Shown: piece after piece, positions 27,796 to 64,000 of the stretch | How positions within the stretch are numbered: the stretch's first letter is position 1 | How the letters are laid out: each line of letters opens with the position of its first letter | Source: Mobula hypostoma | Lineage: Eukaryota | DNA: 64,000 bases | Assembly (NCBI RefSeq): GCF_963921235.1 | Contig: NC_086097.1 | Location: 136,898,001-136,962,000, forward strand | Reading direction: 5' to 3' | The notes under the pieces: generated by a model | Seen by the model: only the letters and a program-made list of their open reading frames with translations | Told to the model about the DNA's origin: nothing | The model's database searches: none | Position numbers and translations under genes: made by a program

Positions 27796-28100
27796 CTATT
27801 GGCTCCCCTTTGTTGTGCTTGAAGATGTGCTGCTCCATTTAGAAATGCTCCTTGCGGATCGTCTAACACCTGGTGACTGGATCTCAACTGTTTCCGATTC
27901 ATCGCCGTCCCCCTCAAAAGGATGATCCGACTCCGCACGGCGAGGCTCTGGGTAGGAGGGCTGGGAGTGTGGGTTTGGGTAGGGGTAGGACCCCTGGTAC
28001 ATGTACAGTTCTCGCTCATCATAATGGTCATAGGTTCGATGGGAGTTTGGAGGCAATTGTACTACAGGGACGTCTTGATCGGTTGGATCACTGTATTCAC
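27796..28100 (-). CDS. col14a1: col14a1 terminal exon, long NC1 ([20 protein letters not shown]...[17 protein letters not shown]...KGSQ*)
   Basis: ttaag|GT acceptor in frame with ORF 27796..28056; resembles the recalled chicken collagen XIV NC1 (PTDQDIPVVQLP...SPG). Confidence 0.85.
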
Positions 28101-31100: not shown

Positions 31101-34100
31101 TCATGTCTCCTCTCATCCTCCTTCTCTCCAGAGAGTAAAGCCCTAGGTCCCTTAATCTCTGATCATAATGCATACTCTCTAAACCAGGCAGCATCCTGGT
31201 AAATCTCCTCTGTACCCTTTCCAATGCTTCCACATCCTTCCTATAGTGAGGCGACCAGAACTGGACACAGTACTCCAAGTGTGGCCTAACCAGAGTTTTA
31301 TAGAGCTGCATGATTACATCGCAACTCTTAAACTCTATCCCTCGATTTACGAAAGCTAACACCCCATAAGCTTTCTTAACTACCCTATCTACCTGTGAGG
31401 CAACTTTCAGGGATCTGTGGACATGTACCCCCAGATCCCTCTGCTCCTCTACACTACCAAGTATTCTGCCATTTACTTTGTACTCTGCCTTGGAGTATGT
31501 CCTTCCAAAGTGTACCACCTCACACTTCTCTGGGTTGAACTCCATCTGCCACTTCTCAGCCCACTTCTGCATCCTATCAATGTCTCTCTGCAATCTTCGA
31601 CAATCCTCTACACCATCTACAACACCACCAACCTTTGTGTCGTCTGCAAACTTGCCAACCCACCCTTCTACCCCCACATCCAGGTCGTTAATAAAAATCA
31701 TGAAAAGTAGAGGTCCCAGAACAGATCCTTGTGGGACACCACTAGTCACAATCCTCCAATCTGAATGTACTCCCTCCACCACCACCCTCTGCCTTCTGCA
31801 GGCAAGCCAATTCTGAATCCACCTGGCCAAACTTCCCTGGATTCCATGCCTTCTGACTTTCTGAATGAGCCTACCATATGAAATCTTGTCAAATGCCTGA
31901 CTAAAATCCATATAGATCACATCTACTGTACTACCCTCATCTATATGCCTGGCCACCTCCTCAAAGGACTCTATCAGGCTTGTTAGACACGATTTGCCCT
32001 TCACAAAGCCATGCTAACTGTCCATGATCAGACCATGATTCTCTAAATGCCCATAGATCCTATCTCTAAGAATCTTTTCCAACAGCTTTCCCACCACTGA
32101 CGCAAGGCTCACTGGTCTATAATTACCCAGACTATCACTGCTACCTTTTTTTGAACAAGGGGACAACATTCGCCTCCCTCCAATCCTCCGGTACCATTCC
32201 CGTGGACAACGAGGACATAAAGATCCTAGCCAGAGGCTCAGCAATCTCTTCCCTCGCCTCATGGAGCAGCCTGGGGAATATTCCGTCAGACCCCGCGGAC
32301 TTACCCGTCTTAATGTATTTTAACAACTCCAACACCTCCTCTCCCTTAACATCAACATGCTCCAGAACATCAACCTCGCTCATATTGTCCTCACCATCAT
32401 CAAGTTCCCTCTCATTGGTGAATACCGAACAGAAGTATTCATTGAGGACCTCGCTCACTTCCACAGCCTCCAGGCACATCTTCCCACCTTTATCTCTAAT
32501 CGGTCCTACCTTCACTCCTGTCATCCTTTTGTTCTTCACATAATTGAAGAGTGCCTTGGGGTTTTCCTTTACCCTACTTGCCAAGGCCTTCTCATGCCCC
32601 CTTCTTGCTCTTCTCAACCCCTTCTTAAGCTCCTTTCTTGCTTCCCTATATTCCTCAATAGACCCATCTGATCCTTGCTTCCTAAACCTCATGTATGCTG
32701 CCTTCTTCCACCTGACTAGATTTTCCACCTCACTTGTCACCCATGATTCCTTCACCCTACCATTCTTTATCTTCCTCACCAGGACAAATTTATCCCTAAC
32801 ATCCTGCAAGAGATCTCTAAAAATCGATCACATGTCCATAGTACATTTCCCTGTAAAAACATCATCCCAACTCACACCCACAAGTTCTAGCCTTATAGCC
32901 TCATAGCCTCATAATTTGCCCTTCCCCAATTAAAAATTTTCCTGTCCTCTCTGATTCTATCCTTTTCCATGACAATGCTAAAGGCCAGGGAGCGGTGGTC
33001 ACTGTCCCCCAGATGCTCACCCACTGAGAGTTATGTGACCTGACCCGGTTCATTACCTAGTACTAGATCTAGTATGGCATTCCCCCTGGTCGGCCTGTCC
33101 ACATACTGTGACAGGAATCCGTCCTGGACATACTTACCAAACTCTGCCCCATCTAAACCCTTGGAACTAATCAGGTGCCAATCAATATTAGGGAAGTTAA
33201 AGTCACCCATAATAACAACCCTGTTATTTTTGCACCCTTCCAAAATCTGCCTCCCAATCTGCTCCTCTGTATCTCTGCTGCTACCAGGGGGCCTATAGAA
33301 TACCCCCAATAGAGTAACTGCTCCCTTCCTGTTCCTGACTTCCACCCATACTGACTCAAAAGAGGATCCTGCTACATTACCCACCCTTTCTGTAGCTGTA
33401 ATAGTATCCCTGACCAGTAATGCAAACCCTCCTCCCCTTTTTCCGCCCTCCCTATCCCTTTTAAAGCACTGAAATCCAGGAATATTGAGAATACAATCCT
33501 GCCCTGGTGCCAGCCAAGTCTCTGTAATGGCCAATGCATCATAATTCCACGTATGTATCCAAGCTCTCAGTTCATCACCTTTGTTCCTGATGCTTCTTGC
33601 ATTGAAGAGCATGCACTTTGGCCCTTCTACCCTCCTACCTTTACACCCTTTATTCTGCTTCTCTTTCCCCAAAGCCTCTCTATATGTTAGATCTGGCTTT
33701 ACTCCATGCACTTCTTTTACTGCCCTTTCACTCAGGGTCCCATCCCCCTTGCAAATTAGTTTAAACCCAAAATGGCTCCCTTTATTCCACTCTGCCTCCT
33801 GCCAATCAGCCAGTGCTCTACCAACGCTAGTATTTTTCCTGTAATCCCATGGGCTCTATTTTATTAATCAGCCTCGCATGCAGCACCTTGTCAAAGGCCT
33901 TCTGAAAATCCAAGTATGCCATATCCACTGATTCTCCTTTATCTATCCTGCTTGTTATTTCCTCAAAGACTTCCAACAGATTTGTCAGGCAAGATTTTAC
34001 CTTAAGGAAACTATGCTGACTTTAAGCTACTTTATCATGTTCCTCCAAGTTCCCCGAAACTGGTGCATAGTAGTAGCTACGCTGCCCTTACCTACATTTG

Positions 34101-37100
34101 ATTAACCTGATCACCACTGTTTTCTGTTGTATAGGCCATCTGTCTACCCACCCCCACCCCCATGACTCTATGCTGTTTCCCTCAATCACACTTTGAGGTG
34201 GCATGTTTCATTTATTGTTACAGTAACAGAGCTGTAGATTCTTTGACTTTTAACCCCTTTGTTGCTATTTTTTAATAAATGGTCTTTTTTTAGCAGAGGA
34301 AAAGAACTTAGAATGAATTTAGAACAAAGAACGTAAAAGTCTCAGGACATTGCTGCAGAGAAGCTTCATGCATTTCAGCGGGTGCATTACTTACAAATGC
34401 AGTGTACTTTAATTGTTTTACCTATGCTCCATCGGTAACAGCGATAGACACAGTACTAACCGCTGCAGCTTATACAGTAGTATGCAAAAGTTTGGGCACC
34501 CCCGGTCAAAATTTCTGTTACTGTGAATAGCTAAGCGAGTAAAAGATGAACTGATTTCCAGTAGGCATAAAGTTAAAGATGACATATTTCTTTAATATTT
34601 TAAGCAAAACTTTTTTATTTCCATCTTTTACAGTTTCAAAATAACAAAAAAATAAAAGAGCCCGAAGCAAAAGTTTGGGCACCCTGCATGGTCAGTACTT
34701 AGTAACACCCCCTTTGGCAAATATCACAGTTTGTAAATGCTTTCTGTACCCAGCTATGAGTCTTTCAATTCTTGTTTGGGAGATTTTCACCCATTCCTCC
34801 TTGCAAAAGGCATCTAGTTCTGTGAGGTTCTTGGGCCGTCTTGCATGCACTGCTCTTTTGAGGTCTATCCACAGATTCTCGATGATGTTTAGAGCAGGGG
34901 ACTGTGAGGGCCATGGAAAAACCTTCAGCTTGAGTCTCTTGAGGTAGTCCATCGTGGATCCTGAGGTGTGTTTAGGATCATTATCCTGTTGTAGAAGCCA
35001 TCATCTTTTCACCTTCGGCTTTTTTTTACAGACGATAGGATGTTTGCTTCCAGAATTTGCTGGTATTTAATTGAATTCATTCTACCCTCTACCAGTAAAT
35101 GTTGAACTTATGAATCCTGGACTTATTTCCTGGCATAATTTACATATTACTATTTAACTATTTATGGTTTTATTACTATTTAATTATTTATGGTGCAACT
35201 GTAACGAAAACCAATTTCCCCTGGGATCAATGAAGTATGACTATGTTCCCCGTGCCACTGGCTGCAACACAAGCCCAAAGCATGATCGATCCACCCCCGT
35301 GCTTAACGGTTGGAGAGGGGTTCTTTTCATGAAATTCTACACCCTTTTTTCTCCAAACATACCTTTGCTCATTGTGGCCAAAATTCAGTGTCAGAAGTTT
35401 GCAAAGGAACATCTAAACTAGCCTGATGCATTTTGGAAACAAGTCCTGTGGACTGATGAAGTTAAAATAGAACTTTTTGGCTGCAATGAGCAAAGGTATG
35501 TTTGGAGAAAAATGGGTGCAGAATTTCATGAAAAGAACCCCTCTCCAACTGTTAAGCACAGGGGTGGATCGATCATGCTTTGGGCTTGTGCTGCAGCCAG
35601 TGGCACGGGGAACATTTCACTGGCAGAGGGAAGAATGAATTCAATTAAATACCAGCAAATTCTGGAAGCAAACATCACACCATCTGTAAAAAAGCCGAAG
35701 ATGAAAAGAGGATGGCTTCTACAACAGGATAATAGTTCTAAGCACACCTCAAAATCCACGATGGATTACCTCAAGGGGTGCAAGCTGAAGGTTTTGCCAT
35801 GGCCCTCACAGTCCCCCGACCTAAACATCATTGAAAATCTGTGGATAGACCTCAAAAGAACAGTGCATGCAAGATGGCCCTAGAATCTCACAGAACTAGA
35901 AGCCTTTTGCAAGGAGGAATGGGTGAAAATCCCCCAAACAAGAACTGAAAGACTCTTAGCTGGCTACAGAAAGCGTTTACAAGCTGTGATACTTGCCAAA
36001 GGGGGTGTTACTAAGTACTGACCATGCAGGGTGCCCAAACTTTTGCTTTTCCTTTTTTGTTATTTTGAAACTGTAAAAGATGGAAATAAAAAAGTCTTCT
36101 TGCTTAAAATGTTAAGGGAATGTGTCATCTTTAACTTTATGCCTTTTGGAAATCCGGTCATCTTTTACCCGCTTAGCTATTCACAGTAACAGAAACTTTG
36201 ACCTGGGTGCCCAAACTTTTGCATGCCACTGTACAACCAAAACAAAGCTGTGCCTCAGCAGGGAAAGCAGCAACAGATTTGTTTGTATCTGAAGCTTAAG
36301 GCTTAAAATCAGTGACACCAACAAAAAAGACAAAATACAAAAGGGCAAACTTAGCGTTTCCTGACATTTTTTGCTCTGCAAAACGGAGGCATAGCAACCA
36401 GAGCAGCGGTAAGGTGCAGGAGCACAGGCAGTAAGTAGTATGCCCTACCTCCAATATTGTAGCCAGCACAGGTAGAGGCATCACAGTAACCTGGTGGTCC
36501 AGGTGGTCCTCTTTGTCCTCTAGGTCCTGTACGTCCCGAGCTACCTTGTTGTCCTGGGAGCCCCGGAGGTCCTTGGCGCCCAGTCCGTCCCTCACCCTGA
36601 GGGCCTGTAATAGAGACGGAGATGAACACAGCAGGTTTAGACACAAGTGAACAGTTGCTTCACACTTCACCTCTCTATTGTTGATCCTGCCTTTAGCTGC
36701 CTGGTTCCACAATTCCTTCATTAGCTTCTGCATCTCACTGTTTCTCCTTCTTTAAGATACTTACTAATACTTACCTCTGACCAAACCTTTTCTCATCTGT
36801 TCTAATGCAGGGGTCCCCAATCTTTTTTGCACCACAGGCCAGTTTAATATTGACAATATTCTTGCAGACCGGCCGACCGGGGGTGGGTGTTCAAGTAGGG
36901 TTAAAGCTCACCTCAACATGTCTTTTACAGTTAGTATTGCCAACTTTCTCACCCAAGTAAAGGACAAAAGTAGCAGTCAAATACGGGACGCTTGAGTTTA
37001 CCCCGAGAAAGATGACCATGACCATGAATCCTTGCGCGGGCACCTGTGTATACATGCTGATATTTTTCCACAAATCGGTTTTGCCTTAATCTTCCTTACT

Positions 37101-43100: not shown

Positions 43101-46100
43101 GAAAAGGGATAATGACTGGTGTTGCAAACCTGCTGTTGTTCGCTGCTTGAAATTTCCAACAGCTATTTATATTGTGACATTCTTCTGAATGCTTGTGTGG
43201 CCTGAAATATTAACTCTGTTTCTCCCCCTTAGATGCTGCATGGCCTGCCGAGTGATATTGGAATTCTTTCAGGCTTTTAGGATTTGAATGACTGCAACAT
43301 GCACCTTTATTATCCTCAGCAGGATGATGCTCCTTATCTGTTGCTCTGTCATAGGTGTGCATCTATATTTTGGCATGATTCTAAGGCACTCCTCTCCCCT
43401 CTCATTAAGTGTAGTCTGTATTGGACAGCGTCCTGCTTCAGCCAGCTAGATTCATGTGAGAACAGGGAGAACGTATTGCCCTTTGAGGTGCAGAACAGAT
43501 TCACCAGGAAGGAAAGGGTTAAAAATACAGACAGGCTATGCAAATGATCCGAGAGAGATGTTTAAGATGATCCACAGATGTTTTCCCTAGTGCAGAGAGT
43601 CCAGATCAAGGGCCAGAAGATCAGAGCAGGTTGTTTGGAGCTGATGTCGGGAAGCTTCTCCTCACACAGGAGGGTGGGGCAAAGCTGGGATTCTTGACTT
43701 TTCAGGCTGGAGGTCAAGGGGAATATTTCACTCTGAGAGTGATGGATCTTTGTCATGCAGAGTGTATTAAAGGTTGTGGAACCAAAGAGATAAAGTTGAG
43801 GTACATGTGAGCCTTGATCTCATTGAATGATGGATCACAACTTAAGGAGTTAAATAGCCCCCGGCTCCACTAAACCTTTTGAATGTCCCTCATATTACAG
43901 CTTGCCTTTGTGCTCCCCATCTGGATATTTAATATGCAAGTTCTAATATCTGTTCTGACAGCTACCTTGTTAGTGAGAATACTACATGGGTTGCTGCATT
44001 GGTGAATTTTAATGACAAATATTTTATTTCTTGTTTCCAAAGCTGTCTTCACTGTCTGTTTTTCCTTCTGTTAACTGCAACCTGTTTCTTTCTTGGCAGA
44101 GAAATTCTCCTGACAGGAGAGCAGGTTAAGGGCAGGTTTAACAGACGTGTTCAAAATTATGAAATGTTTTCAGTAAATTTTTTTAAAAATGCTCCCAATG
44201 GCAAGAGTGTCAGTGACCAGAGGACATTAATTTAAAACGGTCCACGGGAGAAACAGATGAGGAGAAATATTTCAGAATGCACAGCCTGAATGGGTGGCAG
44301 AAGTAAGTTCTATAAGCACTTCCTGAAGGAAATTGGGTTACCACTTGAAAAGGGAACATATTAGTATTAGTTTATCATTGTCATAGTTACCAAGATACAG
44401 TGGAAAAACTTGCTTTTGAATACGATCCATAAAGATAATTTCAAAACAAGGTAGAGAAAGTGCAGTGTAGGTAGACAAGGACCACAACAAGGTAGACTAT
44501 GAAGTCAAGAGCTCAGTATTTTCATACAAGATGTCATTCAAGAGTGTGTTAGCAGTGGCATAGAAGCTGTCATTGAGCCTTAAGGGAAAAGTTAGGGAGC
44601 ATTTTCAAAGGCCTAGCACCGGCACGGCGGGCTGGAGGAGCTCCAATCATTTATATTGTTACCTCTTTCCCCTGGTCGGCCTGGTATTCCTGATGTGCCG
44701 GGGAATCCTGGTCGACCTTGAGGACCTGGTTCTCCTGGTGGGCCTGCAGGCCCCTCGCGGCCTGGTTCTCCTGGGGGCCCTGGCGCTGCCCTCACTTGGA
44801 CAGAGTTGCTGGGGACATGGTTGAGAATGGAGTTGTATCGTGATAAGTGACCTAAGGAGAGAGAGTACCCAGACATTAACACCCATTCCATGGGTACCTG
44901 CTCAGAGCTTGCCGTGGCCCCAAGAACAAAGCAACATCTTTGCAGGAATGATTCCAGCACTATTGAAATAGATGTCTTCTAACCTCTGAACCATCTGTAG
45001 ACGTGACCATACAGAATTTCACAAAGCGTATGGCATTTTAGTCCTTCTACCTCACACGAGTTTCCTATGAGCAGGACCTTTGATCTCATTTCCCTTCAAG
45101 TGTTTATTAAACTTCCTCTTAACAACAGCTGCACAAGTGTAAACCTTTTCAATTCTATCCCACTAGACACGGACACACTGCTTTGTTTGCTCTTTTACAG
45201 ATCGACTCATAACAAGAGTTGGCGATTTGTTTCTAATACAGGAAATGCAGCAGTCAGTTGAAGAACAGCTGCCTCTTACAAACATCAGTGAGGCACTGAC
45301 CAGATGATCTGTTCTGGTCTCGTTTGATGAGGGATGAATATTGACTTCGGACATTAGAGAGAACACCAATCTTTTCCAGATAATAAAAACACCACAGGAT
45401 CTTTTACGTCCCTGGCGGACCTGAAAGTCAGCACTGTACCGGAATGTGTGCGCTGATTTTGTGTCCCCGTCTCAAAAGTGGAACTTCAAGCCAGAACCAC
45501 CTTGTTCTGAGGTGGAAAGCCGAACATTCTGACATTAAGATGCATCGTAGCGCTGTGGTACAGCCAGCTGAGGTATTGACTTGTCCACCTCAAATGTCTT
45601 TTCAAACAATTTGAAAGAAATAAAGAAAATGCTGAAGTGTGACAATCACAAAGGCCTCTGGTGCCATAGTAAGGCACAACACAGAAACAGACCCTTTGGC
45701 CCACAATGTCCACGTCAACCATCAATCACTCACTTACACTAATGCTACATCAATCCCATTTTTTTTATTCTCCACACCTTCTAAACAACTTTCCCATAGA
45801 GTATATCACTTACCTACATGTGGGGCAATTTACAGTGGCCAATAAACACACAACTTGTGCATCTTTGGGATGTGGGGGGTGGGGGAACCCACAGAGAGAA
45901 GGTGCAAACTCCACGCAGACGACACAAGAGGTCAGGATTGTACCTGGGTCATCTGACGCAGAGTGACAGCAGCTCTATCCACTCTGCCAGCCCAAGCCAC
46001 TTCCATCAAATCCCCCGCAGGTCCTGTACAGAACTACTCACTCTGGATAAGCTGCTCACACACTTGCTGGGCAATGACACGAACCATTCCCTGTGACTGG

Positions 46101-49100
46101 GCATCTCCCTGAAACAGTATCAACAGTAAAAAGGGTTTAGGCAGAGTCTAAAAAAACTCTGACAGTTTTAAGAATAATGCAATGGCTACAACAGAAGGCT
46201 GTGAGATTAGTTTGGAGAGATAGCACTATCTGTTAGAACACAGGTTTAATACAGTTTCTGCTTCAGCAATGATTGCCCAGGGAAGTCATCATTCAGTTTG
46301 ATCTGACATTGTTTGTACTATCATGTATTTCATCCATTTCTGTTGACTATGCAGAACTATAATCTATGGTTACAACTGTACCATATTTCAGAAAGCTAAC
46401 ATTCATGTGTAATTTCTCCCATTAGATCCATATAGGTGGAAATGCCCAAGAACACTTATTCCTTCTGTTTCCATGGAAATAAAGGCAGGCCATTCAACCC
46501 TTCAAGTTAGTTCTACAGATTGACCTATACTAACTCCCATCCCTCGATCCCCTTAATATCTGGAAATCTCTCCATTACTGTTTTTATTGAGTTCTGCATT
46601 TAAGCTTCCATGGATCTATGGGATGGAGAATTCCTAAGGTTTTCAACCTCTGCATGAAGGAATTTCTCCTCAACTCAGTCTTAAACTTTCCATACCCCTT
46701 GGTTTTAGACTCATCTCCCTGCTGCCACCATATCAAATGCTGGAGAATGAGGCAAAATTCAATTAGATCTCCCATCCTTCTAAATGCAACACAGGTATAT
46801 TCTAATCAATCTGTCCCCTCACATGGTAAACTGACTATCTGGGAAGTAGTCTAGCGAATCGTTACTGCATTCTCCCTCTATCGCACCTATATCCTTTTGT
46901 AGGTAAGGAGACCAAAATTGCCCATGTACTCCAGGTGCAACCCCAACAAGGCCCTGTAAGACTTCTCATAATAGAGGCCAATATACCTTTAACCTTCCTA
47001 ATCCTTTTGTGCATCTTCACTTTGACGTTCAGTGACTTTTATATAAAATCAACTAGGTCCCTTGGAATATGAACATTAGCCAATCTGTCACTATTCAAAA
47101 ATATTCTGCTTTTCTTTTTGTGTATTGGCATGGATAGTTTCACCTTTATCTACTAGCGCTCAGTCGCCGAACTATCTGATAACCCACTGGTCACAACCTG
47201 TCAACCCAAGAAAAAGTAATATTTTTCCCATGTTTTATGCCCTATCACCAATACTCAACCCATGTTTGTAATTTATCCCCATCCTAATCTGTTCTAAACT
47301 TGTTGATCATCCTTCTATACAGGGCCTTGAGGAATATCTTCTGGAAGTCCAACTGCATCACATCCCCTTTACCTGTTCAAAGAGTGACATCCTCTAAAGC
47401 TCCAAACATGACTTTCCTTTCTTAAATCCACATGGACTCTGCTCAATCCCATCATTCTTTTCAAGACGTTCTGTTATTACATATTTCGTTAACTCCAATG
47501 CTTTTCCTTTTATTGGCATTAGTCTACAACATCAGTACTTCCCAATTCATTTCCTCCCATCTCCCTTCCCCCACCCACCTGGATTCACCTATTTCCGGCC
47601 TACTTGCGCTCCTGCCTTTCTCCCTCCCTTTCATTCTGGCTTCTGTCCCTTTCCAGTCCTGACGAAGGGTCTCAGCCCAACATGTCCACTGTTCGTCTCC
47701 CTCCATAGATGCTACTAAACCCACAGAGTTTCTCTGGAACTTTGTGTCTGTTGCTCAGTACTTCCCAATTTTTAATCTCTGTTTTAACTGTTATTCTTAA
47801 CACCTAAAGAATAATTCATGAATTTTATGGAAGGCAATACCCAAGTCGTTCACTATATCTAATTACTCTTACAAAGTTTTGGGATGCAAGTCTTCAAGTC
47901 CTTGGCATTTATTGGATCATAGTCTCAGCAAACTCTCCACTTTTTCCACTTATTTCATTAAGACCATAAGACATAAGAGCAGAATTAGGCCATTCAGCCA
48001 AACAAGTCTTCTCTCCCATTCCACGATGGTTGAGCTATCATCTCGCTCAACCCCATTTTCCTACCTTCTCCCAGATACCTTTGACCCCATGACTAATCAA
48101 GAGCTTTCAGTTCCTTCAGGTTTTTTCAGCTGCTCATTGTCACTAAGCTCTTTGTTCTCTGGGTTTACTGACAGGTTTCTTAAATTGTTTAATTCTACTG
48201 CCACAGTCTTATTCCCATACTGCTGCGAGGAGCCCACGTTAACTTTCACTCATCATTTTCCTTTTACACACCTTTTAACAGCCCACTTTTAGATTTCTTA
48301 CCAGTTAACTCTCATATTCTAGCCAGCGTTTCTTTAACAATTGTTGGCCCTCATTCACCGAGCCTAAAATCCACCTAATCCTCAGGCCTCCTGTAATTTC
48401 TGGCAACTTTACAGTCCTCATCTTGGACTTAATACCATCTTTAATTCTCCTGGCAGTCATGAATGGACCGGTTCTCCTGCTGGAGTTTCTATGCCCTAAG
48501 AGATTGTATTTCTGCAAATTCTAGTCATGGGCTGTCCACTATACTTTCTAATCAATCACAGCCAGCTCTCCCTTCATAACTTCATGGTCTGTTTAGCTTT
48601 AGGACAGAGTTTCGCCACTTTCAAAAGGGATGCAAAATTCCGTTGCAATATGGTAACTTTTTCCTTTAGTGCCTTTACAACAAGAACATTAATTTCTCAT
48701 TGCACGAGGTCTTAACTAAACTCTACCCTCATTGGTTCCTCAGCGCATAATCCCCATTGGATGAAGTATAAAGTCATTAAGCCTACAAGAGAGTAAAATA
48801 ATTATAGCCTTGTGGACATGGTGCATTCAAACCATAATTTTAGAACATATTCTTTTTTTTACTATTTCCAATGCCTCTGGCAATTATTCAATGCATGTTC
48901 CTTGTATGCCTATTTCAATGAGCCCTGTAGAAGCCACAAACTGGGCAGGTACCAGTGTGTTTTACATTTGGTCAAAATCTCTTCGAAGGAAGACGAATTT
49001 GTCTGTGGCAGCCATCACCTAACACCCGAAGATAGTACCCGAATTCATCTCCTCATAGATAGCTTCACCATCTTAAAGACCAGAATATTTTAAAGTCAGT

Positions 49101-52100
49101 GCCACACTAGCAAATTCTCCACTCTATTGAATATTATTCCCATTAATACCCACATACCAGTTAAATTCACGTATTTTAGATGCTACACCATTTTATAATG
49201 TTACAATGAACCCAGTAAATTTTAAAGTGTGAGGGTCCTGGGAAACAGGGTCCCAGTGACTTTCGGAGAAGTGCAGGAGCCAGGGCCCTGGTGAATTTCA
49301 GAGGTAAACCATCTCTCTCTCTCTATCTCTAACACTATCTCTCTCTCTCTCTCTCTCTCATTCTTACTTTTATTCTAACTCCGAAGACTTTCTCTTTCTC
49401 TCTCTCTCTCACTCTCTTCTGCAGTCTCTCTCTGATGTAATGCGAGTACAGATGGCAGCCTAACTCTAATAAGGTTAACACTAGTGGTCAAAGACAATTT
49501 TCTCTCTCTAACCAGCTGCAGTTCTATAAAATCCTTTGGCCTCTCATCACTTCCCTTGTTCCAACTTCTTCCACACCCTCTACTTCCACCAGTGCCGGTC
49601 CTGCTTACCAATGTTTAGGCTCCGTACTCCAGATACTCAGCTTCTCCTATCCTCCTTCCTTCAGTATTACTTTTTGCCACAACATTTAATTGCCTTTACT
49701 GTCACACTCAACCTAAGTGCAATCTGAGAGGCACTTAGAAAGTTTTACTATGTTAGAAGTACTGAATAAATCAGATAGTTTTGTTGTAATATAGATTCCA
49801 TAGCTATAGTTATCTGTGGTTGTAGATGAACAGTGGGAGTACAATCCTATGTTCGTTTCTCCAATGAATTCACACAGGTGGAAATGCCAGGAGCAATTTT
49901 ACCCAGAGGGCATGACCTGCCTCTTCTCAGTGCTATTTTACAGAAGGAATGCCCTTTAAACACCCACAAGAGAAACAAAAGACACTAAAACTTCAACACT
50001 CTGGCCTACTCCCTGAAAGAGTTTCACAAAGGACATCCATTGTCATTTGCAGTACACCATTGTCCCAGTAAAAGTACTGTTTTGTCTTTAAATTCTAAAG
50101 TTATAATTTGAATGGATTGTGTCCACAAGACCACGAATGGTGATGCCACTCTGGCAAATTCTCCGGACGACTGGATGTAATTGCCATTAATACCCCAACA
50201 GTTTGAATTTAATTTTTCTTTAGACGTTACACCATGTTACAATAAATTTTCTAGTGAACCTAGCGAGTTTAAATGGCCTGCTGGAAACAGTCCCAATGAG
50301 TTTCGGGAAAGTGTGCTTTCCCAAAGAGGAAAGGGTGCTTGTGAGTTTCAAAAGAACACCATTTTTCTATCTATAAGATTCAGATTTATTTATTGTGCAT
50401 ATGGAAATGTACAGTAAAATGCGTCATTTGCATTAACAACCAATTCACCCAAGGATGTATTGAGGGCAGGCTGCAAGTGTTGCCATACATTCCAGCATGA
50501 CCACAAGTTCTCTCTATGAACACACACAAACGTGAGTCAAAGATGGCTGCAATAAGGGAACACACAAGAGGATTATGTACACCTAGCCTGGGCAACCTGC
50601 TTTTAACCTATTTGACTTGGTCAATGCAGTTTGGAATAGCCAGGATCTGATCACTGTAACCCAGGACCAATGAGATGTTCACTCCTGCATCTCCAGAGGT
50701 GCATTCTCTGTGACCAGTATGTTGAACAATCCCCAAGTACATCTTCTCCAACAACAAAGCTAAGAAAAGGCAGGAAGACCTCTATTCCTGGATTCTACAT
50801 GGAAGTTGGTATACTGCAGCAGGAAATCACCAGAAAAGTTTAGGAGCTGTTCAGAGAGCAAACAGCGCCTAGCCAGGAAGTTTGAAACAACTGGTTTCAT
50901 GTGGGAGTCCTGAAACCTGTACTCCCAGCAGTTCAGTAAAGAACTGCCATCAAAGACCACGCCAACAAGACAGCGATTTTTGTTTTAATTTATTAACTGC
51001 TAGTTTAATACACCATTCTACAGATTACCATGTAATCAAAATAAAACTGCCAAAGCAGGCGCTGAGGCTACTGCACAGTAAATCCCATGTAGTGAATTCT
51101 AACGTAACATTATTTAAAACTAATTTATCCAGACTTACCCTTGGGCCCCTTTCTCCTTTCAGACCAGGAGGACCCTGCAACAGAATTAAGAGTAGATTAA
51201 ACAGAAATATATGAAGTTTAGAGACAACAAGCACCTCGAGTCTACACCACAGAAACAGCCGTTCAGCCCAGCTTGTCTTTGCTGACTTCTTTCCTCCTCT
51301 CATCTCTCTCCTGCCCCTTCTCATTTCATCCTTTTTCTTGAACCAACCAGAACAACTCTAATCACTACCTCAAGTATAGTGACACCATTGCCACTTTGCA
51401 TGACAATGGTCTTTTATTCTTGTTCCAACTGTGTTCTTTCTCGTAGAATGTATGTTAGTGTTTTCATATAAATGTTGTGTCTCTAGTGCTGTGTTTGTAA
51501 TGTTGTAAGTTTTTCTTTGCACTTGTGTATACATGTATTTATGCACATGACAATAAACTCAGCTTTTACTTTTCCACAGAACTTGCTGTTCATTTCTTCC
51601 TGCCCTTTATTTTCACACATATTCTCTGTGGACTTTCACAAGGGAGATCCCTTGAGTTACATAAAATCACGAAGAACAGATTAGTAGAGCACACAATGTT
51701 GTGCCAACCTTTAACCTACTCCAAGATCAACCTAATTCTTCTCTCCCACATAGCCCTCCACTTTTCTTTCATCTCTGTGCCTATCTGAACAACTCAATGT
51801 ATCTCTAATGTATCTCCCTCTACCACCACCCCAGTAGCAAGTTCCCTGCACCTACTACTCTCTATATGGAAAACCAAACCTACCTCTGACATCCCCACTA
51901 TACTTCCCTCCAGTCACCTTAAAATTATGCACCCTCATGTTAAGTTAATTCTGCCCTGGGAAAAAAGAATGTGCAAAACAAGATAGTAATGCAGAGACAC
52001 AGTTAGAAACAAGTCCATGTTAATGCAAGAGGTGGTCTATAATTGTTGAGGAAGATTAGAGTGACTTCTACATTCATCTGTAAGAGGTAACGTCCAGTCA

Positions 52101-55100: not shown

Positions 55101-58100
55101 GCTATGTACTGAAGTCCACACAAAGCTAGATACATTCAAAGGTAAAATGCCAATAAAGCCATCCCATCACCGAAGATAGAAATACTCTATGGTGCTTATC
55201 GTCCATCTTGTTGTGTATTTCAAGTCTAAGAGAACATCTGTGGCTCTGCTGCAATGATTATCCAGTCAGAACAAAAAAAAAGCATCTGCACATCTGTTTC
55301 TTGCTCAAAATATTCAAATGTTGGCCTATCACAACACATTCCTACTGATATCTCGTCACTGAAATAAGAGATTAATTTTCTGCGTCATTTTTCCTCTAAT
55401 TCTAGTTGAACAATGCTTTATCATTGGCAGAGGTACGACCAGTAGACGTTCTACTTACGGGAGGTCCTATGTCGCCCTGAGGACCGGGACTTCCTGCAGC
55501 TCCAGGGGAACCTGGGACTCCTGGACTCCCCTATGAGGTCATTCAATGCAACATTAATTCCACAGCACAGATGCACTAACTGCTTTAAGCATATTGATTC
55601 AGACAGATATGGGGCTCGTAAAGACCTTGCATCAAAACTGGCTGCCCCACAGGGGAAAGGAAATGAGCATTTAACTTTATTATGAACATCAGGAAAACTT
55701 GAGGCTCTCAAAGCAAACTCTGCCATTGTTTCATTTGTATTATTATTTTCCATGTAGTTGACGATCTTCGAAAACATCAAATGAAAATGTTGCAAAATGA
55801 TCCAAAAAGAAAATTTTTTAAAGCATTATACATTTGAGCATTAATTAGCCCTTTTTACATTTTATATAATAATATTTATCATTATACAGGTATTTAATAA
55901 TAGATGTTTAAAATACCTTTTCTAGATTGTTAACAGACCTGTACTCTTTAAGTTAGAATAATAGTGCAGAAAAAACATACAAAACTAACAAAAAATAATT
56001 TTAATATAATTGGTAACCAGTATAAAATTGTTGATAAAGGAGTTAATTTACTGAAGTCTTCCCTTAAAAGAAACACCTTAGTGCTTTCACTCATAGCATC
56101 AATATTATTTCTGGAGAGAAAAGGATATCACAGAACTGACGGGGTGGGTGGGATGGAAAGCTGTTAATGTTTAATGTTTATAAATATTCCTTATTGGGTG
56201 TTGCCTATATTATTAACAATGTATCTTGGGAATTTCAAGAGAATACAGACTTTTAATCACAAAACATAGGATTTTTGGTTTGCAAATATATTACAAGCAA
56301 CTGTCAGGGATAACTGAACAAAGGCTATGAGAACGATAGATCTTTTAAACAATATACAGTACAATCATATAAATAATCAAACACAAAGACATTGTACAAA
56401 GCATAGAGGGTCTCATCCAAGTTCTTTGAAAAAAGTGTCAAAGGTATTTTGCAGCAAATGAATTTGGTAAATCATACCCCTGGATATTTACTAAAACCTG
56501 GAAGCAGACTGAAGACTCAGCCATAAGCAAGTTCATAGTTCACTTTCCTCCCCTCCTATTGTGAAAAAGTTGTTACATTTCCTAATGTGTTAACATTGTT
56601 CATAAAGTTTAATATAAAAAATCTGTAATTAAATGCACGTAACTCTTCAGGTGCTACAGGCAAATACATTAGGGATTTTTAAGAAGCTCTCCGGTAGGGC
56701 TATGTAGGCGGGAAGGATCAGATTGATCTTAGAGTAGGCTACATGGTCAGCACAACGTCGAAAACCGAAGGGCCTCTACTGTGCAGTAGCGTTATATATT
56801 CTAAGTGTTGAAACAAATAACAAAATCAATGCAAAAGATAAAAAAATGAAAACTAAATCAATGCATTAAGGATTCTGCTCTATAACATTGTCCCAATCTT
56901 ACTCTTTATATCCAAATTAAATGGATGAGCACACAGGAAATTGTGCATTGCTTTATTTACATCTGTCTCTGATCCAGGATGTTATGGTTGGAGCAATGAA
57001 AGCATTTTTTTAAAAAAAGACTGTAGCTCATAGTTCACCTTGAGAAAGCCAACAAAGCTCAAGGGATTTGCACAAATGTGCAGGTTTGAAGCATTATTAT
57101 TACAATGAGATGGTTGTGTCAGAACCTGATGAATTCTTTTAAAGAGATCCTCCATGCTCTGTTGTTATATGCAGAGAGGAGATGGTGTTAGCTTCATCAC
57201 ATACTCACATTTAGCTGGTTAGAGCTGGCCATTAGGTCGAGTATGAGTCTCTAAACCAATATTAAAACTTAGTCAGCTTGCTTATGTTCCAGTTCTGGTC
57301 TGGGACAACAAACTTACTCCATACTTAACCTGTAGTGAGGTATTTAATTTTGGTTTGGATTCCAGAATGATATATGGGAATTTCTTCACTGGCTTAAACA
57401 CAAAGAGCTGAAGATAGCGTCATTCTCTATTGGTCTGTCTTTAGCCATAAGTGGTTATGGTTTGTGGTCTGAATTGTAAATATGGAGTTCTACACCTCCA
57501 GCAGGCAGAGAGGCACAGCACTAATATACTTCAAACTTGCTAGTTCTTGTTCCAGATTCCAGCATCTTTGATCTCCTTTGTCTTCCTACTCACTGTGGAA
57601 CCTCAGTTTGAACTTGGGAGCAGAAATTATGGGATCAACAGCTTCCTCTGATTTTAGCTCCTTTGAATAGCACCCTGAGAGGCGGGTGTGGATGAATTTG
57701 ATGCTGAGCTTACATGTTAATGAACAATGTCACTGCATTCCATTAGGAAGTATGTGCGGAAATATCAGTTCATGCATTAAGCATTGGATTGGGTCCATGG
57801 TGGTAAATAAAGCCCCAACTGTCTTCCAAAATATCTGCATTAGAATGAGCAACAGGGTGATCCCAAGATGATAACTGTAACTACTTTGTAATATCTGCCA
57901 AGTACCACAATCAGACATATTAGCCATCATTTAACACACAGCTGGCATTATTCAGCTCAGCCTTCCTCTCATCCTGCCAACTATGTTTTGGCGAATTTTC
58001 TGCATGCATTCACCAGGATTTTTGTTCTTGTCAGTTTCCTAGGAGTGGTCTACATGACTGCACAGTTCCTGCCAATCACTCTGAATAATGCCACTCAGTT

Positions 58101-61100
58101 ACAGGGTGGGTACTACTTTTACATATGCCCTGGTGCTTGGAGAGCAAAGTCCATTTAAGGGAAGTGAAAACAGGAGTGTGTGAAAGAGGTCAGTCACTCC
58201 AGAATTGAATATTCAAGATCCACCAACAACTTGATGGGGCCAAGGAGCAAAGTTTTGCCAATACCCATAGAATTACATACCCGGGATACTGAGGGAGCAG
58301 GAAGCAGGAAACACTTCAAGTTTCTACAGATCTTCGAGAAGTCCGTAAAGAGGAATCAAATGATGAGAGTCTCGTTAGCCCACAGGCGGACTGTGCCTCA
58401 TAGACAAGGAATGCATGTTGGGAATGTGGGTTCAAAAACCAGAGGCCATATGTTTGTTTTGCCTGTAGTAATAATAATAGTGTCCTGTTTTCACATCCCA
58501 ATTCTTGACAGATGGGCTGAATCCATTGAACAGGTAGGCAGAGTAAACAGAAGGCAGGCCAATGCTGGGAGATTGGAAAAGCAAGTCTTCTCTACTAATT
58601 CACCTTTATTTCTTGTAGAAACGCCAGTGTAATGGTGTTGCATTGAAGGATGTCTTCTAATGGCAGAAGAATACTAAAAACACTCATATTACCTCAGTTC
58701 AGAGTGGCCGTTTCAGGCAACAACTCCAACATTGAGCTTCCCAGAGTGCATTTCATTCAAAACAAGGAGTTTAAAATTAGACAATGGATCCAGTTCACAC
58801 AAGAGGCGTCGTTCTGAGGTGAATAATCCCAAAGTAGCCTCCCTGGGATTTTATTTGTGAATTCAAAAGGTTTCTGGAAGAGCCGGCATTCATTGCCCTT
58901 TGTTAACTCCCCCTGTGAAGGTGGTGTCGAGCTGATGCCTTAAACTGTTACAGCTGGAGCTAATTCTAAGGCAATTTATAAACAGGCATTGCCTGGTTTC
59001 AAGAAGTGAGAGTATGAAGAGACAAGTACGGGTGGTGGTAGACAAACAATGTGGTAAAGTTGAAGGATAATTAAAATATTGAAGGAAATGGACCGCTGAG
59101 AGAGGTCAGTTTTTGAATCAAGTGGGATCAATCTTTATAGGAAGCCATGGAAGCATATTAGAAGTAAACACAGACAACAATATATGTCTTACAAAGAAAG
59201 CCCGGCAGAAAATAAAGTGATCCCAGATCATTGCTCTGCTTCAGGGCCACGAGAGTATTCCATAATTTAAAATGTTCAGTAGGTGCACACACAGCCAATA
59301 GGTAACAGCCCCCTCACTGGATGAATGGGTACTTGATCAGACATAAAGTACTACGTTGGAACGATGGGATGCAAAGGTGCAGCCAATTGCAGTGATTTTA
59401 TGGTGTTATTCCTTAGCTACATAAAATAAACTTACCCTCCCACCTGGAAAACCAAATGGTCCCAGAGGACCCTCCATACCTCGTCGACCCTGAAAAATTA
59501 ACAGTGTTAAATACTTATGTATAGATGAGGCATGCAAATGGACTCACCACTGGCCCAGGTGAACCTGGTGGCCCAACAGATCCATCTTTACCCATGGGAC
59601 CCTGGATCAAAAGTTGATGGCAGAAGTCATTGCATGAATTTGCAAATATGAACTCATACTGATATATTTAAGCCCACAGACAATTCATTTCAATTGCAAT
59701 GAAATGTGCTTCGTGGAAACAATAAATTCAATTTTACAAATTTCCACATTCTGGTTATTGTCACAACAGGAAGAACTTACAGCACCTTCAAAAACCTTAG
59801 ATGTCCTAAAAATCTTTATCTCTAATAAAATATGTTTGAAGGTACATGCTATAATGTACAAAATGTGACAGGCAGTTTGTGCACAGCACCCTCCCACCAA
59901 AGGCAGTGTGATAATGCTGAGATATCCCTTTTTAATGGTGTTTGAGGGATTAATATTCATCCCACAACACCATTGATTAGCCTCTTTTTTGAAGTATTGA
60001 TTCTTTTGAAGAATGATTTACGTTCATTTGGAAGAGAAAGCAGGGTTTTAAATCTGCCTTACGATTTGCTTCTTGAATTGTGCCGCACTCTCTCGGTGCT
60101 GCATTACCGAGCACCACCCTGGATTTTGTGTTCAGGAATCCATTGCAGGACTCCAACCCCGACATATCATGATTCAGCTCCCTGCTTTGTGATCCTCATA
60201 GTACATCATTTATGGCTTGATAATCTACTCCCAAATGTCAAGCCAGCTGAGAAAAAGGAGGTACTTTCTGAGAGGTATGAAAAATGAAACCTTGGATGTC
60301 ACAGCCAATTAGGTTATGAACCATCTGTGGTGAAGGCTGGAAAGACTTGACTCATAGAAACAAATCCTCACACAGCCTGGTGAAATGTTGATATGGAAGA
60401 AGATCTCCTCAAACAGGAACTGTGACTTCAGGGAAGATCGGAGAGGGAACAGAGGGAAAAGGGCAGGGGTGAGGGGTTAGAGCAGGGGGATGGGGGAAGG
60501 GCAGTGGTCAGCGGGTAGGGCAGGGGAAGGTATAGATGGAAGGGGATGGTGTTTGATGGATTATATCTGATCATGAGGGAGCAGAGGTGGTGCATGATGG
60601 GTGGTATCAGACCATGAGAGGTGGTAAGTGTGTACAATAGGCAATATGAAAAAGATGCAGCTAACTCAATTTCCCCCTATATTAACCAAACATTACAACA
60701 CGATAGCACTTGGGTACAATAATCAGACTGGATAGACTAACTATTTACCCAAGCTTTGTCATTCCTGATGTCATGTCCTTTGCTTGTGACAGATTATGAT
60801 TCACTGTAACCTTTCTCTTGCAGGCTTTACTGGTCTTTTTTGCTTAGTGGATGTATGCCAATTCTATTTACATGACAGTAAACCGTATCTGGAAGCTGAG
60901 TGGTGTTCAGGGCCTTGTAGTAATTAAGGACAACACCTAGTGGTCTGGGACTTAGTGAAGATAGAGGCCAGTTAAACTCTAGTGAAGTCTGTCAAATCAA
61001 AGAAGCCAACAAATTCAGTTGCCAAATGAATACTAATTAATGCTAAAGACAACTCCTAAATTAAAATGTATAATGGTAAAATTCAATCAGAGGAGCAGAA

Positions 61101-61541
61101 GTAATTGAAGATAACCAATCAGCGCCTGTTTTGTGCTCTACCCGAAGTTTTTTTTTCCTATCCCGTCCAATGAGACAAGGGTATCTGATTCAGCACTGCC
61201 CATATGGTTCTTCCTCCCATGGAACTGCACCTCCTGTGTTGGTGGTCCTCTCTGTGCACACCATCCATACACTTCAATAGAAGGAATGTTTTGGGGCTTT
61301 CTAATTCATAGCCCCTCACTCCCAACAAAAAGCTCTGGAGTCTCCAGAGTTCCAGGCTCTACAACAAGCCAATGCACACCCACCCAAATCCCAGGCTTGC
61401 TCCAGTGCTGGCTCTGTGAGAGAAATGGGCCTAAAGGAGGATAACAGAGTAAATCCATTAGCATCCAGATGGAATATCAAGGCTTACCCTTTGACCTGGT
61501 GGCCCGTCTCGTCCTGGGAGTCCTCGGGGACCTGGCAGACC
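27796..61541 (-). CDS. col14a1: Collagen alpha-1(XIV), 3' part of gene (multi-exon; the 5' part lies beyond the window end)
   Basis: Phase-compatible GT-AG exons join to [43 protein letters not shown]...[55 protein letters not shown]...|...[11 protein letters not shown]. This matches collagen XIV COL2-NC2-COL1 as I recall it, including the FACIT C-x4-C motif. The convergent mrpl13 neighbour fits known COL14A1 synteny. Confidence 0.92.
28973..29016 (-). CDS. col14a1: col14a1 candidate alternative terminal exon, short NC1 ([14 protein letters not shown])
   Basis: First AG after a long AG-free pyrimidine tract. The phase-1 reading aligns without gaps to the recalled human isoform ending DLIPYNDYQH (Y-x-D-Y-Q conserved). 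Confidence 0.65.
29303..34060 (-). mobile_element. Old CR1 fragment hosting two extra CR1 3' ends (about 29563-30045) and a younger CR1
   Basis: [20 protein letters not shown]; host sequence rejoins across 30759/33769. Confidence 0.8.
30759..33768 (-). mobile_element. CR1 LINE, near-complete ORF2 (APE + RT) with a few frameshifts, truncated at the end of ORF1
   Basis: ORFs 33031..33711 (NARSI, ITETWL, GDFNFP), 32141..32809 and 30820..32004 ([14 protein letters not shown]); TTCTATG tail. Confidence 0.93.
34475..36231. mobile_element. Tc1-family (IR/DR type) non-autonomous foldback element with TA TSD
   Basis: TA|CAGTAGTATGCAAAAGTTTGGGCACCC ... GGGTGCCCAAACTTTTGCATGCCACTG|TA; inner direct repeat at 34667; DDE remnants ([20 protein letters not shown]) on + at about 35390-36020 and mirrored on - at 34692-35383. 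Confidence 0.93.
35104..35247 (+). mobile_element. Rex1 3'-tail fragment inserted in the left arm of the Tc1 element
   Basis: Reverse complement of the Rex1 3' end at 7104-7240; ATGTT repeated at 35099-35103 and 35243-35247. Confidence 0.85.
36449..36604 (-). CDS. col14a1: col14a1 COL1/NC1 exon, 156 nt (GPQGEGRTG...[18 protein letters not shown])
   Basis: tattacag|GC...G|gtaggg; ends with the FACIT cysteine pair C-x4-C. Confidence 0.93.
36808..37561. mobile_element. Non-autonomous hAT element (Charlie-like TIRs) with 8-bp TSD TTCTAATG
   Basis: CAGGGGTCCCCAA...TTGGGGACCACTG; TTCTAATG at 36800-36807 and 37562-37569. Confidence 0.9.
37998..41085 (-). mobile_element. Degenerate Rex1/Babar LINE with a second element inserted at about 38821-39570
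   Basis: [21 protein letters not shown] and FGKSDHL remnants; (CTTTGAA)n-type tails at about 38000 and 38822. Confidence 0.75.
42394..42471 (-). CDS. col14a1: col14a1 COL1 exon, 78 nt ([27 protein letters not shown])
   Basis: ttttcctag|GT...G|gtaaag; has the GVG imperfection typical of the FACIT COL1 domain. Confidence 0.93.
44663..44851 (-). CDS. col14a1: col14a1 NC2/COL1 exon, 189 nt ([34 protein letters not shown]...GRPGERG)
   Basis: tctccttag|GT...G|gtaac; phase 1-1; contained in ORF 44613..44960. Confidence 0.93.
45800..45990 (-). mobile_element. HE1/V-SINE-like SINE
   Basis: Minus strand GGAGTTTGCACCTTCTC..GTGGGTTTCC..CCCACATCCCAAAGATG core. Confidence 0.65.
46042..46108 (-). CDS. 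col14a1: col14a1 COL2/NC2 exon, 67 nt ([22 protein letters not shown])
   Basis: ctgtttcag|GGA...CAG A|gtgagt; carries the QVCEQLI motif of collagen XII/XIV NC2. Confidence 0.93.
46485..48715 (-). mobile_element. Highly degenerate CR1 fragments with an inserted Penelope-like piece (about 47530-47757, +)
   Basis: [13 protein letters not shown] remnant; CAGTCCTGACGAAGGGTCTCAGCCC motif at about 47655. Confidence 0.65.
49313..49432 (+). repeat. (CT)n microsatellite cluster
   Basis: Several interrupted CT dinucleotide runs. Confidence 0.85.
51139..51174 (-). CDS. col14a1: col14a1 COL2 exon, 36 nt ([12 protein letters not shown])
   Basis: ttgcag|GGT...AGG|gtaagt. Confidence 0.92.
52530..52860 (+). 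mobile_element. HE1/V-SINE-like SINE
   Basis: GCTGCTGTCTCACAGCTCCA..GTGACTGTGTGGGT..TTTCCTCCCACATTCCAAAG core and a CR1-like tail. Confidence 0.65.
54340..55110 (+). mobile_element. Degenerate CR1 3' fragment interrupted by a Penelope-derived inverted repeat (about 54470-54652)
   Basis: [10 protein letters not shown] remnant; host resumes at actaggatcttgcctggattagaggg. Confidence 0.75.
54557..54593 (+). ncRNA. Decayed minimal hammerhead ribozyme of Penelope type (probably inactive)
   Basis: AGTC-CTGATGA-A-GGGTCTCGGCCC-aAAA-C-aTt-GAC; the CUGAUGA box and stem II are intact, while GAAA and the GUC triplet are mutated at CpG positions. Confidence 0.6.
55459..55530 (-). CDS. col14a1: col14a1 COL2 exon, 72 nt ([24 protein letters not shown])
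   Basis: ctcatag|GGG...CCC|gtaagt; eight Gly-X-Y triplets. Confidence 0.92.
59436..59489 (-). CDS. col14a1: col14a1 extra COL2 exon B, 54 nt ([18 protein letters not shown]), probably an alternative to exon A
   Basis: tttttcag|GGT...AGG|gtaagt; six perfect Gly-X-Y triplets; only 58 nt downstream of exon A. Confidence 0.85.
59548..59601 (-). CDS. col14a1: col14a1 COL2 exon A, 54 nt ([18 protein letters not shown])
   Basis: ccag|GGT...GTG|gtgagt; resembles the mammalian segment GLPGKDGSSGPPGPPGPI (recalled). Confidence 0.92.
61488..61541 (-). CDS. col14a1: col14a1 COL2 exon, 54 nt ([18 protein letters not shown])
   Basis: tgtgttcag|GGT...AGG|gtaagc; six Gly-X-Y triplets, phase 0-0. Confidence 0.93.
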
Positions 61542-62604: not shown

Positions 62605-64000
62605 TCACAAGACAAAGGAGCAGAAGTAGGCCATTCAGCCCATCGAGTCTGCTCTGCCACTCCACCATGAGCTAAACTATCCTCCCATCTAGTTCCAACT
62701 TCCAGCTTTTTCCCCATATCCCTTGATACCCTGACTAATGAGATACCTATCAATCTCCTCCTTAAACACCCTCAATGATCGGGCCTCCACAGCTGTATGT
62801 GGCAACGAATTCCATAAATCCATGACTCTCTGGCTAAAAAAACATTCTCCTCATCTCTGTTTTAAATGGGTACCCTCTAATTCTAAGTCTGTGGCCTCTT
62901 GTCCTGGACTCACCCACCAAGGGAAACAACCTTTCCACATCGACCCTGTCCAACCCTTTCAACATTCGAAATGTTTCTAGAAGATTCCCTCTCATTCTTC
63001 TATACTCTAATGAATACAGTCCAAGAGCCGAAAAACGCTCCTCATATGTTAGCCCCTGCATTCCAGGAATCATCCTCGTAAATCTTCTCTGAACTCTCTC
63101 CAACATCAGTACATCCCATCTAAGATAGGGGGCCCAAAACTGCACACAGTATTCCAAATGAGGTCTCACCAGTGCCCCATAGAGTCTCATCAACACCTCC
63201 TTACTCTTATACACTATTCCTCTTGAAATGAATGCCAACATAGCATTCGCTTTCCTTACCGCCAATCCAACTTGGTGGTTAACCTTTAGGGTATCCTGCA
63301 CGAGGACCCCCAAGTCCCTTTGCACTTCTGATTTTTGAATTTTCTCCCCATCTAAGTAATAATCTGCCCGATTATTTCTTTCAAAATGTACAACCGTACA
63401 TTTCTCAACATTGTATCTTATCTACCATTTCTTTGTCCACTCTCCTAAACTGACCAAGTCTCTCTACAACCTTTCCGTTTCTTCAACACTTCCTGCTCCT
63501 CCACCTGTCTTGGTGTCATCTGCAAACCTAGACACAAAACCAATTAATCCAAAATCTAAATCATCGCTATACATTGTAAAAAGAAGCCGCCCCAACACCG
63601 ACCCCTGCAGAACACCACTAGCAACCGGCAACCAATCAAAATAGGATCCTTTATTCCCACCCTTTGCTTTCTGCCTATCAGCCAATGCTCCACCCATTCC
63701 AATCTTTCCTGTAATTCCATGGGCTCTCATCTTATTAAGCAGCCTCTTATGCGGCACCTTATCGAAGGCCTTTTGAAAATCCAAATACACAACATCCACA
63801 GCCTCTCCCTTGTCAATCTTATTTGAGATTACCTCAAAAAATTCCAATAGGTTGGTGAGGCAGGATCTTCCCTTTATGAAACCATGCTGGCTTGGGCCTA
63901 TTTTGTCATGCACCTCAAGGTATTTCATAACCTCATCCTTGAGGATCGCCTCCAATGACTTTCCAACTACTGAAGTCAGACTAATATGTCTGTAATTTTC
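62605..64000 (-). mobile_element. CR1 LINE 3' part, continuing past the window end
   Basis: ORFs 63464..63955 ([15 protein letters not shown]) and 62834..63325 ([13 protein letters not shown]); 3' UTR ending TCTTGTGATC. Confidence 0.92.

Follow-up and report, generated by a model that had tools for sequence, protein, structure and literature searches.

The collagen XIV gene (col14a1) of sharks and rays carries, at a single position of its COL2 domain, two neighbouring exons, A and B, that are likely to be spliced mutually exclusively, and the arginine-rich exon B resembles the exon that collagen XX (col20a1) has at that position; as judged from sequence, this likeness is real but moderate, strongest with the col20a1 of cartilaginous fish and weak with that of bony vertebrates. 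Our preferred explanation, which we consider about evenly balanced between being right and being wrong, is that the conserved exon B, an alternative to exon A, arose by exon duplication in the ancestor of col14a1 and col20a1, exon A later being lost from col20a1 and exon B from bony-vertebrate col14a1.

The window gene and its exons

The window (the whole stretch of DNA that was analysed, 64,000 nucleotides from the ray Mobula hypostoma) holds the 3' end of ray col14a1 on its minus strand, as found by a scan for Gly-X-Y exons, which yielded COL2, NC2 and COL1 exons (Table 1), and by sequence matches. The exon that identifies the gene is identical (100% over 62 amino acids) to ray collagen XIV P0001, the top ten matches of its translation are all shark or ray collagen XIV, and P0001 falls in the col14 clade of the TSPN tree (support 100/97). 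By these matches the window gene is col14a1, orthologous to collagen XIV rather than to collagen XII or XX. All seven non-B window exons tested are present unchanged in two Mobula hypostoma collagen XIV models, and six of the seven in a third, in which the last exon differs. Exon B is missing from all three of these models though it is intact in the window, so that absence from the annotation is not absence from the genome.

Table 1. Positions of col14a1 features in the window
Feature	Position	Strand	Description
Upstream flanking exon	61488..61541	-	54 nt, 18 residues
Exon A	59548..59601	-	54 nt, 18 residues, GKD type
A-B intron	59490..59547	-	58 nt, GT..AG; by prediction too short to let A be joined to B
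Candidate branch point TTAAC for exon B	59506..59510	-	Adenine 59507; predicted
Exon B, COL2 domain of col14a1	59436..59489	-	54 nt, 18 residues, arginine-rich alternative to exon A
Downstream flanking exon	55459..55530	-	72 nt, 24 residues
Last COL2 exon	51139..51174	-	36 nt
First NC2 exon (GDAQSQ...VCEQLIQ)	46042..46108	-	
NC2/COL1 exon	44663..44851	-	62 residues (44664-44849); identifies the gene as col14a1

Exons A and B are both in phase 0 and have canonical splice sites (for exon B a cag acceptor and a gtaagt donor, read from the window). They are the sole two matches in the window to a pattern that combines a 54-nt Gly-X-Y exon, D or E as its sixth residue and canonical splice sites, and that found nothing in 100 shuffles. 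The GKD type of exon A is common to bony col14a1, col12a1 and the cyclostome genes. The 36-nt exon is joined to the 72-nt exon in loose contig ends from three runs.

Elsewhere in the window, the gene has two alternative last exons on the minus strand, a short one at 28973-29016 (14 residues) and a long one at about 27796-28100 (reading GEYSDPT... NC1), both of which match isoform models from rays and sharks. At about 34422-34433 (minus strand) there is a match to a third last exon of other sharks and rays (ending DGA*), preceded by CG and not by an AG acceptor, which is possibly an exon decayed in this ray or a chance match. By inspection, the long open reading frames at 1134-3365 and 24283-24798 (plus strand) and at 30820-33855, 7246-9397 and 62834-63421 (minus strand) look like fragments of LINE reverse transcriptase and endonuclease.

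Use and conservation of the two exons

We opened ten clusters of shark and ray collagen XIV, one of them represented by 15 of its 34 members. Among the col14a1 proteins listed there, all of them predicted models, 68 of 69 cover the region: 54 have exon A, 14 have exon B and none has both. Exon B occurs in at least 12 of 20 shark and ray species and in at least 14 protein models; among its bearers are a hexanchiform, several galeomorph sharks, two skates, a stingray and a manta. The B exons agree among themselves at 8.6 of the 12 non-Gly residues and the A exons at 7.7, so that exon B is under constraint. Its characteristic residues are R/K/Q3, T/M/V5, E/D6, F14, P15 and R18 (E/D at residue 6 is found in A-type exons too and is not diagnostic of B), and five non-Gly residues are invariant across sharks and rays, where the Gly-X-Y frame is also kept. 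In P0124, the Mobula birostris collagen XIV isoform X2, a helix-breaking Val stands for Gly at residue 4; in this species exon B may be decaying. Heptranchias shows a usage opposite to that of most species, three of its four collagen XIV models (P0136, P0135 and P0137 being among its proteins) having exon B and one exon A, and B may be the commoner form there.

Four presumed-RNA contig sets, from four studies and out of 16 runs (the RNA type is a guess, not on record), cover the junctions. In all four the exon at 61488 is joined to exon A and exon A to the exon ending at 55530, across exon B and with CT..AC ends, and spliced exon B appears in none of the four, contigs being prone to drop rare variants. 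Exon A is thus the main form in these four samples; the contig sets show the main form only, because contigs drop rare forms, and absence from them is no evidence of silence. The expression of exon B rests on RefSeq models and on conservation, and B is probably a minor or tissue-restricted form. A reading of exon B as a silent pseudo-exon, or as an artefact of the annotation, would fit with its being unspliced in the contig sets, with its absence from the listed models of 8 of 20 species and with the Gly-to-Val change in Mobula birostris, but the Gly-X-Y frame and the five invariant residues, a conservation equal to that of exon A, canonical splice sites and separate RefSeq isoforms in 12 species leave this reading hardly credible. 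Low-depth intronic contigs in run X1 flank the pair (59223-59407 and about 59794-60007) and come from unspliced RNA or DNA.

Steric exclusion is the likely mechanism of the choice between A and B, given that the predicted branch-point adenine of exon B lies only 41 nt from the donor of exon A in an intron of 58 nt, a length that allows hardly any greater distance; it lies 18 nt from B's own acceptor. Exons A and B are identical at 29 of 54 nucleotides, no more than B and the upstream exon, and at 2.4 of the 12 residues, which is background level. We infer the homology of A and B from position, length, the shared D/E6 and the link through col20a1.

Exons at the same position in the paralogues

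The col20a1, col12a1 and cyclostome proteins were gathered by a TSPN-domain search of cluster representatives with follow-up searches, and the isoforms of twenty further clusters were listed for the paralogue comparison; the col20a1 orthologues compared came from chicken, opossum, coelacanth, lungfish, gar, bichir, teleost and shark. TSPN trees unite col14 and col20 as sisters with col12 outside (94/92; SH-aLRT 99.2).

At the position of exons A and B, the readable col20a1 proteins (134, from 148 examined) have R3 in 134 of 134 and R18 in 133, and K5 in none, the 26 chondrichthyan models included. At the level of annotation, and in a genomic look at one bird-type locus (L062), col20a1 is without an A-type exon; at that locus the col20a1 segment also forms an exon of its own, 54 nt long and with identical boundaries. 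R3 or R18 is found in none of the 141 readable col12a1 proteins (142 examined; 34 chondrichthyan), in none of the 54 readable bony col14a1 proteins (130 examined, the rest being broken models, fragments or other collagens) and in none of the 20 readable cyclostome proteins (24 examined; five distinct exons, all with K5). Our bony col14a1 sample consists mostly of teleosts, with sturgeons, paddlefish, coelacanth and one frog, and covers neither amniotes, gar, bichir and lungfish nor, on the cartilaginous side, the col14a1 of chimaeras. At annotation level every cyclostome model (20) and every col12a1 model (141) is of the A type, so that among them no unduplicated outgroup shows both exons; an absence of B from col12a1 and cyclostomes is what a pair originating on the col14/col20 stem would predict.

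The cartilaginous-fish collagen XX proteins (P0184, P0338-P0348) are about 1850 amino acids long and mostly named 'XIV-like' in RefSeq; the shark proteins so named cluster with chimaera and chicken collagen XX (support 100/99). One that was scanned has two vWA domains, as in collagen XIV, where the chicken protein has one. P0348, an isoform X2 of the col20a1 type from Narcine, omits the B-like exon, which hints at alternative splicing of this exon in col20a1. The GKD motif itself has changed independently in different genes: GN-x replaces it in some teleost col14a1 (P0025, P0094 and 11 others), and GKQ or GIQ in some galeomorph shark col12a1 (P0472, P0493 and P0495), R3 and R18 being gained in neither group. 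P0205, a 1960-amino-acid collagen with six TSPN-like stretches, a FACIT-like end and GKDG at exon A's distance from NC2, was tried as an outgroup and not counted: it is without FN3 and vWA domains, and an Atlas search gave generic collagen clusters.

Relic exons were sought in a metagenome scan that returned at least 108 loci, 107 of which were read, over 35 of 64 parts; the relevant loci are L062 (col20a1) and L104 (a teleost-type col12a1 exon), with no col14a1 locus among them. Neither is flanked by a relic exon, with at most 2-3 of 6 Gly codons in Gly periodicity, and at L104 there is none within 300 nt on either side.

Likeness of exon B to the col20a1 exon

Over the 12 non-Gly residues, which alone carry the signal, exon B has on average 4.77 identities to chondrichthyan col20a1, 3.53 to bony col20a1 and 2.85 to col12a1, and 2.37 to shark A, 1.95 to bony A and 1.67 to cyclostomes. 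Against a background of 254 exon-like 54-nt stretches of unrelated collagens, B's identity to chondrichthyan col20a1 is reached by 3 of the 254, that to bony col20a1 by 12 and that to A by 74, while its BLOSUM score to chondrichthyan col20a1 is reached by none. R in the Y position is common (13%), and R3 and R18 occur together in 12 of the 254. We also scored B with profiles against 14,184 in-register 18-mers from the fetched collagens, and obtained median tail fractions of 0.004 for the chondrichthyan col20a1 profile, 0.010 for all col20a1 and 0.035 for bony col20a1 (0.020, 0.041 and 0.114, respectively, without residue 18), against 0.20-0.56 for the A, col12 and cyclostome profiles. When the 54-60 windows along the helix are ranked by likeness to B, the homologous position comes first in four of four chondrichthyan col20a1 proteins, and it ranks 2, 2, 2, 4, 5 and 19 in six bony ones. 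That exon B was copied from the upstream exon or from some other part of col14a1 is not supported, the best col14a1 windows reaching 9-17 where the chondrichthyan col20a1 exon reaches 25-26.

For placement on a tree, exon B was grafted onto the fixed gene tree with branch lengths informed by 89 neighbouring columns (P0076, which has a 15-residue insertion, was left out of this alignment). The four placements with col20 are best, and the six outside that lineage are 5.5-7.2 lnL worse under LG and rejected under both LG and WAG (AU p 0.018-0.022); under the Poisson model no placement is rejected (AU p 0.16). The best-scoring position is beside chondrichthyan col20a1, 1.7 lnL over the col20 stem, which is not significant (AU p 0.10). 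With the exon alone (12 columns), trees that join B to col20 are ahead by 5-6 lnL, and an origin of B from elasmobranch A survives the test (AU p 0.10-0.15).

B and chondrichthyan col20a1 are the most similar of five COL2 exon pairs compared (0.40, against 0.12-0.34). A and chondrichthyan col20a1 (0.26) fall within the range of neighbouring col14/col20 exon pairs (0.13-0.35), so that the col20a1 exon may be no more than an A that has diverged. The invariant R2, P8 and F14 of B are not found in col20a1. The col20a1 exon is unusually far from the cyclostome exons, its closeness of 0.21 being about half that of A (0.41) and of col12 (0.37), while of four neighbouring exons there are three at which col20a1 and the other genes stand about equally close to cyclostomes; within col20a1 the exon is the best or second-best conserved one.

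These results bear out part of what the sequence-only reading had proposed: that exon B looks like the collagen XX version of this exon, being closer to it than random Gly-X-Y exons are, and that COL12A1 and COL14A1 use an exon like A, the 141 col12a1 models all being A-type and bony col14a1 lacking R3 and R18. A grouping of B with the A of its own species would have counted against that reading; B does not group so when grafted on the fixed tree under LG and WAG, and the exon-only AU test leaves an origin from A unrejected. The 12 variable columns cannot separate the two dates for the pair that are weighed below.

Origin of the exon pair

The GKD-type exon would be the ancestral state, since col12a1 and the cyclostomes have it. 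After the split from col12 it would have been duplicated in tandem, the new copy acquiring R3 and R18 along with an uncharged residue at 5 and a hydrophobic one at 14; a genome duplication in jawed vertebrates would then have given col14a1 and col20a1, of which col20a1 kept the B type only, bony-vertebrate col14a1 the A type only, and the col14a1 of sharks and rays both. Such a duplication on the col14/col20 stem needs two losses, because the col12a1 and the lamprey and hagfish models are all A-type, and one burst of change on that stem together with the two losses would account for both the exon similarities and the distribution of the exons. According to PMC10927551, the first genome duplication belongs to the stem of vertebrates and the second to that of jawed vertebrates, and we infer that the col14/col20 split is the second. 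The supplement of the ohnolog database PMC13450315, its full tables lying outside our scope, has no entry for col14a1, col20a1 or col12a1.

The main competitor, which we regard as unlikely though well worth weighing, is an independent origin, with a tandem copy of A within cartilaginous-fish col14a1 having diverged beyond recognition and converged on col20a1. R3, R18 and two hydrophobic positions would then have come to be shared either accidentally or because a basic patch was selected for at this point of the helix. It draws on the sighting of B in elasmobranchs only, on the frequency of Y-position arginine and of the R3 and R18 combination in unrelated exons, on the exon-only AU test and on P8 and V/L9, which B and shark A have in common. 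It has to face, however, that B is no closer to A than random exons are, that placing B next to A costs 7.2 lnL (AU p 0.02 under LG and WAG), and that two separate bursts of change at the same exon would have had to end on the same residues. We think it decidedly improbable that B was instead transferred, being copied from col20a1 into col14a1 or overwriting a duplicate of A by gene conversion in early cartilaginous fish, as its best placement, its greater nearness to chondrichthyan than to bony col20a1 and the exceptional similarity of the B-col20a1 pair among COL2 exons might suggest; the lead over the col20 stem is not significant, slower change in cartilaginous fish explains the same pattern, and the ectopic event would have had to strike the homologous position. 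Were it true, it would be an exon-sized gene conversion between genome-duplication paralogues at a homologous helix position, and a splice switch giving collagen XIV an arginine-rich segment like that of collagen XX.

A deeper date for the pair, the one that the sequence-only reading had given, puts both exons in the ancestor of collagens XII, XIV and XX, with col12a1 and the cyclostome genes having lost B as well. Exon-only likelihoods for this date equal those for the col14/col20 stem (0.0-2.0 lnL), and annotation can miss B, as the three ray models that match the window do. It nevertheless appears improbable, as B-like exons are found in none of the col12a1 proteins, chondrichthyan ones included, nor among the five distinct exons of the cyclostomes, the surroundings of L104 hold no relic, and more independent losses are required with no positive evidence for them. 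What stands of that earlier claim is a likely ancestral pair, in the ancestor of col14 and col20 and not in that of XII, XIV and XX, where col12a1 and cyclostomes are all A-type. The companion claim that the paralogues each fixed one exon would hold for col20a1 (B type) and bony col14a1 (A type), and is inexact for sharks and rays, whose col14a1 kept both; the relic exons that it led one to look for were absent from the single col20a1 and single col12a1 genomic stretches read.

Function of the exon swap

Exon B has a mean net charge of +2.75 where A has 0.0 and the col20a1 exon +1.0, and 3.3 prolines where A has 4.9, so that use of B would swap a neutral, proline-rich stretch of 18 residues in the COL2 helix for a basic one of unchanged helix length. 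With the Arg that precedes it, exon B gives R-G-R-[R/K/Q] in all 14 B proteins, and in the window the last Arg of the upstream flanking exon makes this R-G-R-R. R-G-R-R fits the furin cleavage motif, but cleavage here is unlikely, given that the motif is present in 11 of the 14 B proteins, with K or Q in three, and lies inside the triple helix. Our best guess is that B probably forms a putative glycosaminoglycan-binding patch; its most basic residues, R2 and R17, are not common to col20a1. Collagen XIV has been described to bind heparan sulphate, a property not shared by its NC3 domain (PMC2119504).

Relation to known exon pairs and significance

The separation of splice isoforms after gene duplication is a known process, with 11 events among 97 human genes in the survey of Abascal, Tress and Valencia (2015; PMC4494069), and section 12 of PMC9741552 describes such outcomes for CACNA1C/1D versus 1F/1S, FYN versus FRK/SRC/YES1 and PGM1/PGM5. 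On our preferred reading those cases resemble ours in that one paralogue has both tandem exons and another has one, and in that the exons are ancient, equal in length and in the same frame. Both papers start from human exon pairs; the two-exon state of A and B survives only in sharks and rays, and a human-based survey therefore cannot see it. Unlike the isoform-separation cases, the homology of A and B rests on a low-complexity exon of 18 residues. The word 'collagen' occurs 0 times in the main texts of the two papers, and a literature search, mostly of open-access papers, found nothing on the A/B pair or on the history of this collagen family.

For the mechanism, the part of PMC7969005 on OGDH proposes a steric threshold of about 50 nt between the branch point and the upstream donor; for exons 4a/4b of that gene the distance is 25-41 nt, and the distance predicted for exon B falls at 41 nt. 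OGDH has distant branch points in a long intron, whereas the A/B intron is 58 nt long and its predicted branch point sits as far from the acceptor as is usual. According to the passages of PMC4165533 on exclusive exons, which cite alpha-tropomyosin as a case of sterically enforced exclusion, exons 9/10 of the C. elegans let-2 gene (collagen IV alpha-2) are a mutually exclusive collagen pair with an intron that is too short to be spliced (30 nt); they differ from A and B in belonging to another collagen family and phylum and in having a known developmental switch and a regulator, ASD-2. The RefSeq X1/X2 models of shark and ray collagen alpha-1(XIV) already hold A and B as equal-length alternative isoforms, but as automatic predictions without interpretation and without a link to col20a1. 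As the process is known and both isoforms are already annotated, the gain here is a specific, testable case and not a new principle.

If our preferred reading of a duplication on the col14/col20 stem is true, sharks and rays preserve a splice choice older than the duplication that gave col14a1 and col20a1. The departure of collagen XX from XII and XIV at this one exon would then be accounted for, and the few known exon pairs shared out between paralogues would gain a collagen example that human annotation cannot reveal. The A/B pair is also a natural swap of 18 residues with which to probe binding by the FACIT COL2 helix, and it bears on the poorly known function of collagen XX.
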